From Dehalococcoidia bacterium (GTDB taxonomy: Bacteria > Chloroflexota > Dehalococcoidia > UBA2979): a stretch of 64,000 nt of DNA. Shown one piece after another: positions 1-23,204 of this stretch. Every line of letters starts with the position of its first letter. The first letter of the stretch is position 1. A program made the translations under genes and the position numbers. The stretch lies in assembly GCA_963667515.2 (NCBI GenBank), contig CAXXXY010000007.1:137393-201392 (forward strand). Direction: 5' to 3'. The notes under the pieces are model-generated. The model saw only the letters and a program-made list of their open reading frames with translations, did no database searches and was not told the origin of the DNA.

Positions 1-1000
1 CCGCGCTCGCGGCCACGCTGGTGCGCGACCCGGCGGAGCGCCCCCTCTTCGACGCGCTCTTCGAGCAGCTGTGGTCGGGGCGCGAGCCGCCGCCGGCCGC
101 GCTCGCCCCGCCGCGCGAGCTACCCGCGGGGCAGCGCCGGCCGGAGCCCGCGGGCCGTGTGCAGCGCGCCGCCGTCGAGGGCGAGCTCTACGCGGGTGGC
201 GAGGCGCGGCCCGCGCCGTCCGCGAGCGAGCGCGCCTACAGCGGGCAGGACCTCGTCACCAGCCGCGACTTCTCGCAGCTGCGGCCGGAGGAGCTGGCGG
301 CGGTGCGGCGGCGAATCCGCGCGCTCGCCCCGCGCCTCGCCAGCGCGCTCTCGCGCCGGCGCTGCGCCGCGCGGCTCGGTCGCGGCGTTGACCTGCGCCG
401 CTCGATGCGCCGCGCGGCGCGCCGCCACGGTGAGACTGCGCGAGCTGGAGCGCACTCGCCGCCGCCGCACGCGGCTCGTGGTGCTCGCCGACGTCTCGGG
501 CTCGATGGACCTCTACTCGCGCTTCCTGGTGCAGTTCCTCTACGGCCTCCAGCAGGAGCTGCGCGGCGTCTCCACCTTCGTCTTCTCCACGCGGCTGTTC
601 GAGGTGACGCCGATGCTGCGCGCGCTCCTTCGACGCGGCGCTGCGGCTGGTGGCGCAGTCCGTGGATGGCTGGAGCGGCGGCACGCAGATCGGCGCCGCG
701 CTGGCGGACTTCAACCGCCGCTACGGGCGCGAGCGCGTGGGCCGCGACACGGTGCTGATCGTGCTCTCGGACGGCTGGGACCGCGGCGACGCGGAGAGCG
801 TGGGGCGCGAGATGGCGCTGCTGCACCGCCGCGCGCGCCGCGTGATCTGGCTGAACCCGCTGCTGGGCTCGCCGGGCTACCGGCCGCTCGCGGGCGGGAT
901 GGCGGCGGCGCTGCCGCACTGCGACGAGTTTCTGCCCGCGCACAACGTCGACTCGCTGGTGGCGCTCGGGCGGCGGCTGCTCGCGCTGGCCGCGAGCTAG
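1..1000 (+). pseudogene. VWA-domain CoxE-like protein; 5' end outside window; reading frame broken twice
   Basis: Conserved CoxE/VWA blocks lie in three successive frames: RDFSQLRPEELAAVRRRI (frame of nt 21), RLVVLADVSGSMDLYSRFLVQFLYGLQQ (frame of nt 157), DGWSGGTQIGAALADFNRRY..VLSDGWDRGD..IWLNPL (frame of nt 650). Frame switches occur near nt 428-435 and nt 625. TAG stop at 998-1000. Confidence 0.75.
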
Positions 1001-2052
1001 CTGTAGTTCCCACGTAGGTTGTTGACAGGATGAGGGGCCTCGCCCGCTGCTGTGTGTGACAGCACGGCAGTAGCGAGGAGAGGACACCCTCATGGCCCAT
1101 CGTAACGCGCGGCTGACGCCGCTGACCCGACTCGAGCTCGTGCGGGAAGTGGACGCCGGCTGGCCCCAGGCTGAGGTCGCTCGCCACTTCCGCGTCTCCC
1201 GCCACACCGTTGCCAAGTGGCTGGGGCGCTTCCGGGCGGAGGGAGCGGCAGGGCTCGAGGACCGCAGCTCCGCCCCGCGCGCGCATCCCCGGCGCACGCC
1301 GCCCGAGCTGGAGCGACGCATCTGCGCCGTGCGACGCACGCAGGGATTCGGGCCGCATCGCATCCAGTGGGCGCTCGGGGTCGCCCGCTCCACGGTCTAC
1401 GCCGTGCTGCGGCGCCGCGGCCTCAACCGGCTCGACCGCCTGCACCGCGTCACCCGGGAGCCGGTCCGCTACGAGCACGACGCCCCCGGCGACCTGCTGC
1501 ATCTCGACGTGAAGAAGCTCGGGCGCGTCCCCGAGGGCGGCGGCAAGCGAATGGCGCCTGGCTTCGCCGAGACGCGCTCCGGGCCGCATTCGCGGCGTTC
1601 GCTGGGGCTGGAGTACCTACACGTCGCCGTCGACGACCACAGCCGTTACGCCTACGTCTCCGTCCTGCCCGACGAGCGTGGCGCGAGCTGCGCCGCCTTC
1701 CTCGAGCAGGCGCTCGCGGCCTTCCGCCGGCGTGGCGTGCGCGTGCGCCGGGTCCTGACCGACAACGCGAAAGCCTACACCGTCGCCCGCAGCTTCCACG
1801 GCGCCGCCGCTGCCGCAGACGTGCGGCTGTCGCACACGCGGCCCTACCGCCCGCAGACGAACGGCAAAGCCGAGCGTTTCATCCAGATCCTGCAGAACGA
1901 GTGGGCCTACGCCCGCCCCTACCGCTCCAACGCCGAGCGGCTGCGCCAGCTCCCACGCTGGCTCTACCGCTACAATCACCGCCGACCGCACGGCGGCGTC
2001 GGCGGGGCCGTCCCCGCCTCCCGCCTGTGAACAACCTTCCTGGGTAGTACAG
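1001..2052 (+). mobile_element. IS481-family insertion sequence, copy 1 (1052 bp)
   Basis: Imperfect ~29-bp terminal inverted repeats: CTGTAGTTCCCACGTAGGTTGTTGACAGG at the left end, and the reverse complement of CCTGTGAACAACCTTCCTGGGTAGTACAG at the right end (24/29 match). CTAG on both flanks (997-1000, 2053-2056). Single DDE transposase ORF. Same unit recurs at 6317, 19691, 22145 and 48934. Confidence 0.93.
1092..2030 (+). CDS. IS481-family DDE transposase (312 aa)
   Basis: N-terminal HTH (LTPLTRLELVREVDAGWPQAEVARHFRVSRHTVAKWL). Integrase-core region with HLDVKKL, VAVDDHSRYAYV, VLTDNAKAY, RPYRPQTNGKAERFIQILQNEWAY. Confidence 0.93.
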   Translation: MAHRNARLTPLTRLELVREVDAGWPQAEVARHFRVSRHTVAKWLGRFRAEGAAGLEDRSSAPRAHPRRTPPELERRICAVRRTQGFGPHRIQWALGVARSTVYAVLRRRGLNRLDRLHRVTREPVRYEHDAPGDLLHLDVKKLGRVPEGGGKRMAPGFAETRSGPHSRRSLGLEYLHVAVDDHSRYAYVSVLPDERGASCAAFLEQALAAFRRRGVRVRRVLTDNAKAYTVARSFHGAAAAADVRLSHTRPYRPQTNGKAERFIQILQNEWAYARPYRSNAERLRQLPRWLYRYNHRRPHGGVGGAVPASRL

Positions 2053-2257
2053 CTAGCCGCCGCGAGCCGGGGGCCGGGGGCGGGGGCCGCGGGCGGGGGA
2101 CGCGGGCGAGGCGCGAGCCGCGAGCGAGGCGCGGCGGGCGGGGCGGGCGGAATCCGCTTCGCGCGGGCGCTCGTACAGTGGAGGCGTGGCCGAGGGCTGC
2201 GCGTCCGGAGAGCGCCCCCGGCGCGCCCCATTCCGGCGGCGCGCTTCGGGGGCGCGG

Positions 2258-21352: not shown

Positions 21353-22144
21353 ATGGCGGGGACGAGCGGCGAGGCAGCGGCGCCCGAGCGGCGCGAGCGC
21401 GTGGGCGGCGGCTCGTCGCGCGACGACGCCTCGTCGGGCGGCGAGCCGCGCGGCGGAGTCGAGCGCATCGCCTTCGCGGGGGCCGTCGCGGTGCTGCGCC
21501 CCGGCTCGATCGCGATCCGGCCCTCGCGCGCGCGCCTGCTGGGCCCGGCGATCGAGGGCGCGCTCGCCGTCTGCGCCGTCGTCGCGATCGCGACGCTACT
21601 CCCCGTGCTCCCGCTGTGGGCGCTGCTGCTGCTGCTGCTGGCGGCGATGCTGCTGGGCCCGATCGCCGTTCTGGGCGTCGTCTACAACATCGCCGGAAGC
21701 TTGGTGCTGATCGAGCGGGCGAAGAGCTCCGTGCGCTACCAGCAGGGCTTCCTGGGCCTCGGCATCGGCACCGCGGAGCTCGTGCCGTTCTGGCGCATCG
21801 CCCGCTTCGAGCTCGCCAGCTCCTGTCGCTCGCCGCTGACCAGCGGCGAGCGACAGGAGCTGGTGGAGTGGGAGGTGCGGCTGGTGAAGGACAACGGCCG
21901 CGTGCTCCCCGTCGCCTCGGCGGTGGCGCCGCCGCCCTTCGCCGAGCAGGCGCGGGCCCGCGCTGCCCGCCTCGCCGAGGCGCTCGCCGAGATGACGGGC
22001 GCGGCCGTCGAGGCGCCCCCGTCGCCTGTCGGCGAGGCTGCCGCTGGGGAGCCGCACGCCGACGCCGACGCCGACGCCGACGCCGACGCCGACGCGGACG
22101 TGCCTCGGCGTCCGCGCCGTCGGCGTCGACGGCGGACGGGCTAG
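21353..22144 (+). CDS. Hypothetical membrane protein with (Ala-Asp)n and poly-Arg tail
   Basis: Two to three hydrophobic segments and a GC3-biased frame. C-terminus is HADADADADADADAD-VPRRPRRRRRRRTG. TAG stop 22142-22144 lies in the IS flank CTAG. Confidence 0.55.
   Translation: MAGTSGEAAAPERRERVGGGSSRDDASSGGEPRGGVERIAFAGAVAVLRPGSIAIRPSRARLLGPAIEGALAVCAVVAIATLLPVLPLWALLLLLLAAMLLGPIAVLGVVYNIAGSLVLIERAKSSVRYQQGFLGLGIGTAELVPFWRIARFELASSCRSPLTSGERQELVEWEVRLVKDNGRVLPVASAVAPPPFAEQARARAARLAEALAEMTGAAVEAPPSPVGEAAAGEPHADADADADADADADVPRRPRRRRRRRTG
22058..22099 (+). repeat. Hexanucleotide microsatellite (GCCGAC)6 plus GCGGAC
   Basis: Perfect tandem hexamers inside the 21353-22144 ORF. In frame, encoding Ala-Asp repeats. 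Confidence 0.95.
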
Positions 22145-23196
22145 CTGTACTACCCAGGAAGGTTGTTCACAGGCGGGAGGCGGGGACGGCCCCGCCGACG
22201 CCGCCGTGCGGTCGGCGGTGATTGTAGCGGTAGAGCCAGCGTGGGAGCTGGCGCAGCCGCTCGGCGTTGGAGCGGTAGGGGCGGGCGTAGGCCCACTCGT
22301 TCTGCAGGATCTGGATGAAACGCTCGGCTTTGCCGTTCGTCTGCGGGCGGTAGGGCCGCGTGTGCGACAGCCGCACGTCTGCGGCGGCGGCGGCGCCGTG
22401 GAAGCTGCGGGCGACGGTGTAGGCCTTCGCGTTGTCGGTCAGGACCCGGCGCACGCGCACGCCACGCCGGCGGAAGGCCGCGAGCGCCTGCTCGAGGAAG
22501 GCGGCGCAGCTCGCGCCACGCTCGTCGGGCAGGACGGAGACGTAGGCGTAACGGCTGTGGTCGTCGACGGCGACGTGTAGGTACTCCAGCCCCAGCGAAC
22601 GCCGCGAATGCGGCCCGGAGCGCGTCTCGGCGAAGCCAGGCGCCATTCGCTTGCCGCCGCCCTCGGGGACGCGCCCGAGCTTCTTCACGTCGAGATGCAG
22701 CAGGTCGCCGGGGGCGTCGTGCTCGTAGCGGACCGGCTCCCGGGTGACGCGGTGCAGGCGGTCGAGCCGGTTGAGGCCGCGGCGCCGCAGCACGGCGTAG
22801 ACCGTGGAGCGGGCGACCCCGAGCGCCCACTGGATGCGATGCGGCCCGAATCCCTGCGTGCGTCGCACGGCGCAGATGCGTCGCTCCAGCTCGGGCGGCG
22901 TGCGCCGGGGATGCGCGCGCGGGGCGGAGCTGCGGTCCTCGAGCCCTGCCGCTCCCTCCGCCCGGAAGCGCCCCAGCCACTTGGCAACGGTGTGGCGGGA
23001 GACGCGGAAGTGGCGAGCGACCTCAGCCTGGGGCCAGCCGGCGTCCACTTCCCGCACGAGCTCGAGTCGGGTCAGCGGCGTCAGCCGCGCGTTACGATGG
23101 GCCATGAGGGTGTCCTCTCCTCGCTACTGCCGTGCTGTCACACACAGCAGCGGGCGAGGCCCCTCATCCTGTCAACAACCTACGTGGGAACTACAG
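22145..23196 (-). mobile_element. IS481-family insertion sequence, copy 4 (1052 bp)
   Basis: Same ends. CTAG at 22141-22144 and 23197-23200. One synonymous difference from copy 3 was noticed. Confidence 0.93.
22167..23105 (-). CDS. IS481-family DDE transposase (312 aa)
   Basis: Protein identical to copies 1 and 3. Confidence 0.93.
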   Translation of the reverse strand: MAHRNARLTPLTRLELVREVDAGWPQAEVARHFRVSRHTVAKWLGRFRAEGAAGLEDRSSAPRAHPRRTPPELERRICAVRRTQGFGPHRIQWALGVARSTVYAVLRRRGLNRLDRLHRVTREPVRYEHDAPGDLLHLDVKKLGRVPEGGGKRMAPGFAETRSGPHSRRSLGLEYLHVAVDDHSRYAYVSVLPDERGASCAAFLEQALAAFRRRGVRVRRVLTDNAKAYTVARSFHGAAAAADVRLSHTRPYRPQTNGKAERFIQILQNEWAYARPYRSNAERLRQLPRWLYRYNHRRPHGGVGGAVPASRL

Positions 23197-23204
23197 CTAG
23201 CGGC

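Follow-up and report, generated by a model that had tools for sequence, protein, structure and literature searches.

A window of 64,000 nucleotides (nt) from a Dehalococcoidia bacterium (the whole stretch of DNA that was analysed: contig CAXXXY010000007.1 of assembly GCA_963667515.2, positions 137,393 to 201,392) carries a repeat of about 1.05 kb in five copies. The base composition of the window is about 75% G+C, and in a self-BLAST comparison the copies span approximately 997-2060 (+), 6313-7376 (+), 19685-20746 (-), 22141-23200 (-) and 48930-49994 (-). The repeat is an IS481-family insertion sequence (IS) that has recently expanded in a high-GC Dehalococcoidia genome. CTAG is present on both sides of all five copies, at all ten junctions, as noted in a first-pass annotation of the sequence. 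Searches with both terminal repeats recovered the left and the right end five times each, all copies being complete, and found no solo IS ends in the window. Four of the copies are packed into 22 kb and all five into 64 kb, a density in the range known for IS481 in Bordetella pertussis, where many near-identical copies are found per genome.

Copies 1 to 4 are each 1050 bp long and are bounded by imperfect 28-bp inverted repeats beginning with TGTA (left inverted repeat, IRL: TGTAGTTCCCACGTAGGTTGTTGACAGG; right inverted repeat, IRR, as reverse complement: TGTACTACCCAGGAAGGTTGTTCACAGG). There is one open reading frame (ORF) per element, encoding a DDE transposase of 312 amino acids (aa), which is intact in these four copies. 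Copy 1 lies at 1002-2051 (+), with IRL at 1002-1029, IRR at 2024-2051 and the transposase at 1092-2030. Copy 2 is located at 6318-7367 (+; transposase 6408-7346), copy 3 at 19692-20741 (-; transposase 19713-20651, -) and copy 4 at 22146-23195 (-; transposase 22167-23105, -). Copy 5 (48935-49989, -) is intergenic, 1055 bp long and outside the range of 997-23200 given in the first-pass annotation. It carries a 5-bp insertion that frameshifts the transposase, leaving it broken into 49228-49899 and 48956-49165, plus two single-nucleotide polymorphisms (SNPs).

The transposase scores 320.4 bits against the NCBIfam IS481 model (NF033577, transpos_IS481; cutoff 224) over profile positions 2-284 of 284, which bears out the earlier family assignment. 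It is encoded by a single unframeshifted ORF with an N-terminal helix-turn-helix (HTH) and leucine zipper followed by an rve core, as is typical of the family (Pfam HTH_23/28/32, LZ_Tnp_IS481, rve and rve_3). The element also has the size (about 1-1.3 kb) and the inverted repeats beginning 5'-TGT that define IS481 elements, the ends of IS481 itself beginning with TGT, and its NCTAGN target with a 6-bp duplication (see below) is likewise that of the family. Thus, every testable defining feature is present, and the element belongs to IS481. In the hidden Markov model (HMM) search the transposase was below cutoff for the IS3, IS21 and IS630 models. Some IS630 members insert in CTAG, and an IS630 or IS5 identity, prompted by this target, was excluded by the HMM scores (IS630 65.5 bits, cutoff 100). 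The IS630 family duplicates TA, whereas the window element duplicates 6 bp, so that it has neither the transposase score nor the duplication of that family. It also falls outside the IS481 subgroup in which the transposase stop codon comes from the target TAG, as the transposase stop is a TGA (2028-2030 in copy 1) within the IRR, 21 nt short of the element end.

Copies 1 to 4, together with a copy on a 9-kb contig of a metagenome-assembled Dehalococcoidia genome (L054), differ from each other by single SNPs only. This near-identity indicates that the expansion of the IS is recent, and the presence of near-identical dispersed copies would be compatible with copy-paste DDE transposition. More distant relatives, with 64-86% identity, all come from high-GC Dehalococcoidia genomes.

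The duplicated core was originally taken to be 4 bp. However, the duplication is of 6-bp NCTAGN, as in IS481 itself, and the element as drawn earlier included one base too many at each end, the correct termini being TGTAG...GTACA. Termini were compared in 80 related loci from 16 genomes, and repeats were scored in 75 related copies. The termini TGTAG...ACA are conserved across the 80 loci, and the base between terminus and CTAG takes all four values. This CTAG-adjacent base matches the distal flank in 57/75 copies at N1 and in 55/75 at N6. As a variable inner base that matches the far flank must be part of the repeat, the duplicated unit is the hexamer. Perfect 6-bp repeats are seen in 43 of the 75 copies (for example TCTAGT/TCTAGT, GCTAGA/GCTAGA and ACTAGC/ACTAGC), whereas 5000 within-genome permutation trials gave 19 on average and never more than 31.

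Within the window, copy 1 (996-1001 and 2052-2057) and copy 4 (22140-22145 and 23196-23201) have perfect GCTAGC repeats. The repeats of the other three copies are imperfect, which weighs against a 6-bp duplication. Copy 3 (plus strand ACTAGC 19686-19691 and GCTAGC 20742-20747) reads GCTAGC/GCTAGT in element orientation, with 5/6 positions matching, copy 5 (plus strand ACTAGG 48929-48934 and ACTAGT 49990-49995) reads ACTAGT/CCTAGT, also 5/6, and copy 2 (CCTAGC 6312-6317 and GCTAGT 7368-7373) reads CCTAGC/GCTAGT, with 4/6. In spite of these mismatches, the DNA flanking copies 2 and 3 is collinear with that of relatives. The alternative is that only CTAG is duplicated and that the element ends are CTGTAG...CTACAG. 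The bases beside TGTAG and ...TACA are indeed always C and G in copies 1 to 4, and the outer bases of copies 2 and 3 are unlike between the two flanks. However, copy 5 has T and C at the positions where copies 1 to 4 have C and G, the inner bases of the 75 relatives take all four values and match the distal flank in 55-57/75, and published family members duplicate NCTAGN (PMC6794481, PMC2516522, PMC3053399). A 4-bp duplication is therefore hardly credible, and the 6-bp NCTAGN unit is retained.

In copies 2 and 3 it is the outer bases of the repeats that differ, the inner bases being the common C/G. Recombination between IS copies was considered as the source of these imperfect repeats and is unsupported, as the flanks are collinear with those of IS-free relatives. 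Gross rearrangement is thus not the cause. Candidate causes are point substitution, gene conversion between copies that extended into the repeat, or assembly consensus error. For annotation purposes, the five repeats can be described as IS481-family elements with 6-bp NCTAGN direct repeats, copy 5 being a pseudogene.

Genes in the window were called first from G+C content at third codon positions (GC3) and then by a codon log-odds model, using our own caller. The earlier claim that four of the five CTAGs contain a host TAG stop holds with these calls, and the host genes have good coding statistics. Copy 1 follows a CoxE-like VWA gene (Pfam VWA_CoxE) at 650-1000, the stop of which is TAG 998-1000 in the left direct repeat. 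Copy 2 follows a GatD-like amidotransferase gene (5522-6316, TAG 6314-6316) that adjoins a gene for a MurT-like ligase, and an M23 peptidase gene (7420-8346) lies on the other side of the element. Copy 3 is between two convergent genes. One of these (19376-19690, +; TAG 19688-19690) encodes a 104-aa protein with an NCBIfam 'DF family (seleno)protein' domain (94 bits, cutoff 70), and the other is a 99-aa ORF (20743-21042, -), the stop of which is the reverse complement of 20743-20745. Copy 4 follows a gene for a 263-aa protein (21353-22144, TAG 22142-22144), homologues of which are annotated as YdbS-like membrane proteins. Copy 5 is the exception; its intergenic CTAG at 48930 lies 35 nt away from a stop-codon CTAG that is free of any IS (48895, end of ORF 48269-48898), and a further free CTAG is found at 50008, 14 nt past the other border of the copy.

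The CoxE-like gene is split over two frames in the longer interval 157-1000, with profile positions 43-108 found in 157-~640 and positions 121-221 in 650-1000. The 1-nt shift near 615-650 could reflect a pseudogene or an assembly error.

In IS-free relatives, orthologous loci have the same stops at three of the four stop sites, and thus the stops predate the insertions. In L081-L084 the convergent pair found at copy 3 overlaps by a single 4-bp CTAG (GGCTAGG or GGCTAGC). In L166 the GatD-like protein is 89% identical, its gene ends in GCGCTAGCTC (GCTAGC), and the M23 peptidase gene begins 24 nt later. The gene for the 263-aa protein ends in GTAG or TGA in IS-free relatives, 3-8 nt ahead of the next gene. 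A metagenome scan with GatD recovered relatives of at most 67% identity, which were used for gene order only, and exact-protein look-ups for three window proteins returned no match. The earlier statement that no ORF is truncated is also upheld, since the host stops are regenerated. A TAG stop on either strand survives insertion, since the palindrome CTAG is re-formed at both borders of the element.

The proposal that C-TAG stops supply most CTAG sites agrees with the counts. After excision of the IS copies, 45 CTAG sites are counted in the window, of which 25 are stops, 15 are intergenic and 5 are coding. Stop usage among the 63 host genes is TAG 38, TGA 24 and TAA 1, although bacteria generally use TAG least of the three stops, and the base preceding TAG is usually C. 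About half of the CTAG sites are stop codons for this reason. Related Dehalococcoidia loci are also rich in TAG, but these loci were chosen for their CTAG sites and are hence biased. The second proposed source of CTAG, -10 boxes, finds no support in a promoter scan, which covered 22000-23400 only.

With so many CTAGs at stops, the window by itself gives no evidence of stop targeting. Stop CTAGs make up 4/5 occupied and 21/40 free sites (Fisher p=0.36), and an excess at stops over chance is thus not confirmed there. The question was addressed in the wider family by comparing the 75 related copies in the 16 genomes with a background of 295 unoccupied CTAGs, each lying no more than 3 kb from an insertion. 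Here stop sites account for 40/75 occupied and 83/295 free sites, with a genome-stratified odds ratio of 2.4-3.0 (p=0.005 for 2.4), and the odds ratio is 3.2 when only copies with perfect repeats are considered. By gene arrangement, enrichment is confined to convergent junctions (29/75 occupied, 38/275 free). Co-directional stop sites are at parity (21% occupied, 20% free), and non-stop intergenic sites in divergent or co-directional arrangement show a depletion of about two-fold. Occupied sites also differ markedly in base composition. G+C in the 6 bp to the left and the 6 bp to the right of CTAG, relative to that of the locus, is +0.11 at occupied and +0.01 at free sites (p=6e-10). This difference is present within the stop, intergenic and coding classes, and is also seen in the window (flank GC 0.90 occupied, 0.77 free, p=0.015).

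Flank GC, gene arrangement and site class were then combined in a logistic model with genome strata. Flank GC alone is strongly supported (p=4e-11), with an odds ratio of about 2 per +0.1 GC, and convergent arrangement retains support given flank GC (p=0.014). Site class adds nothing given flank GC alone (p=0.70), nor does stop, coding or divergent status given both flank GC and convergent arrangement (p=0.92). Thus, once sequence context and arrangement are taken into account, no excess occupancy of stop CTAGs is found. Base preference at N1 and N6 was also tried as a source of the stop enrichment and rejected, as it is weak within site classes.

Stop hits therefore very probably follow from the CTAG target combined with heavy use of TAG stops, with stops not being targeted as such. 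Under this explanation, the association with stops results from CTAG specificity, TAG-rich stops, a bias to GC-rich flanks and the build-up of copies where gene ends converge. From what is known of the family, the transposase would bind the inverted repeats beginning TGTA and cut at NCTAGN with a 6-bp stagger, the hexamer then being duplicated on repair. CTAG is thereby rebuilt on both sides, and a TAG that is hit is re-formed at the border facing its gene; where two convergent genes share one CTAG, each receives its own copy, as with copy 3. Stop-codon CTAGs more often have the GC-rich flanks seen at occupied sites, and copies accumulate between convergent genes, where insertion should be least harmful. 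We infer an intrinsic target preference behind the GC-flank effect, and selection behind the bias to convergent junctions. The case illustrates how a fixed palindromic target and the stop usage of a genome jointly determine the places where an IS does little damage, a principle already described for ISRe46.

The first-pass annotation had favoured a gene-boundary-targeting lifestyle. In an active form of this reading, the element itself, or an interaction with terminating ribosomes or transcription, would select stop-codon CTAGs and gain a safe harbour to an extent greater than target availability predicts. The four window copies at stops, the pooled stop counts and the odds ratio in copies with perfect repeats would all fit such a mechanism, as would the CTAGs common to two convergent stops, of which 7 are occupied and 1 is free. 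However, 4 of these 7 double-stop sites have mismatched repeats and possibly chimeric flanks, the window result is not significant, and the pooled effect disappears with flank GC and convergent arrangement in the model. Additionally, 13/75 copies are in coding sequence and 23/75 in non-stop intergenic DNA, copy 5 took a non-stop CTAG with a free stop-codon CTAG close by, and orientation relative to the gene hit is unbiased (about 20 and 21 copies). Active targeting of gene ends is therefore very improbable.

Selection on its own could also be invoked, with random insertion at NCTAGN and with the GC-flank, stop and convergent enrichments all arising because harmful insertions, such as those in promoters richer in AT, are lost. 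The enrichment of convergent junctions and the depletion of divergent and co-directional non-stop intergenic sites are in line with this. However, strong selection should deplete coding insertions most, and these are barely depleted (17% of occupied and about 27% of free sites); the excess of flank GC is moreover seen among coding insertions as well (0.73 compared with 0.635). Selection as the sole cause is thus unlikely. A different possibility is that this IS481 clade has an extended target, CTAG in G/C-rich flanks, that in a TAG-rich host steers insertions to stops, especially to those shared by convergent genes. This is decidedly unlikely, although if true it would amount to a quantifiable 'safe-landing' bias in which both stops are rebuilt and high copy number is reached at low cost.

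Several points weigh against the preferred explanation. When each gene-arrangement class is taken separately, stop sites still tend to be occupied more than non-stop intergenic ones (odds ratios of 3.3 and 4.0, with p=0.13 and 0.07, respectively), so that there may be a small residual direct preference for stop-codon sites. Flank GC could itself stand in for another variable. The mild depletion of coding insertions fits poorly with strong purifying selection. Gene calls are from our own caller, and background sites are those within 3 kb of insertions.

The description of the insertions as essentially non-disruptive fails for copy 4, which splits a tightly coupled gene pair. A CoA_binding_2 gene (23205-23684, +) lies downstream of this copy and would, without it, start 5 nt past the stop of 21353-22144; copy 4 separates it from its 263-aa partner by 1056 bp. 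The YdbS-like and CoA_binding_2 genes are adjacent in close relatives, 3-8 nt apart, and are fused as one protein of 360-390 aa in more distant relatives (e.g. P0016, P0029, P0078 and P0081). P0076 is a further homologue in which the pair is adjacent or fused. A polar effect of copy 4 on 23205-23684 is likely, and annotation could record that this copy probably affects expression of the downstream CoA-binding gene. The scan of 22000-23400 for promoters and terminators found no consensus sites, a result that has no bearing on read-out.

Similar elements have been described in other bacteria. IS481 of B. pertussis is 1043 bp long with a duplicated NCTAGN target (PMC3053399). The window element resembles it in its similar size, single DDE transposase and duplicated 6-bp NCTAGN, with the likeness of the proteins resting on the family HMM, and differs in its host, a high-GC metagenome-assembled Dehalococcoidia. 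ISRe46, part of TnRErm46 in Rhodococcus equi, also has NCTAGN direct repeats, and its duplicated TAG gives stop codons to target genes, which stay uninterrupted (PMC6794481). Thus, NCTAGN duplication with regeneration of host TAG stops is already published for ISRe46, and the GC-flank association of occupied sites is the sole new observation here, a modest one. ISRe46 differs from the window element in that the TAG of its right repeat is the stop of its own transposase, where the window element has a TGA inside the IRR, and in that it moves cargo genes in a 6.9-kb transposon, where the window element is a plain IS (PMC6794481). ISLxc2 and ISLxx4 of Leifsonia xyli are alike in being about 1.1 kb, with TGT inverted repeats, duplicated NCTAGN and multiple copies, but their transposase stop is in the host insertion site, unlike in the window element, and ISLxc2 has an in-frame premature stop where window copies 1 to 4 are intact (PMC2516522). 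Within the plasmid collection, the annotated element most similar to that of the window is on Streptomyces rimosus pPZG101 (NZ_MZ502219), with 50% amino-acid identity. It shows a perfect 6-bp repeat (CCTAGC|TGTAT...ATACA|CCTAGC), and its annotated transposase ORF ends in the right-repeat TAG, unlike that of the window element.

Apart from the IS copies, the window contains diverged direct repeats with 71-82% identity: 11590-11816 with 14799-15025, 12669-12803 with 15236-15370, and 45533-45767 with 46094-46328. These point to sets of paralogous genes around 11.3-16 kb and to a repeat internal to gene 45146-46621.

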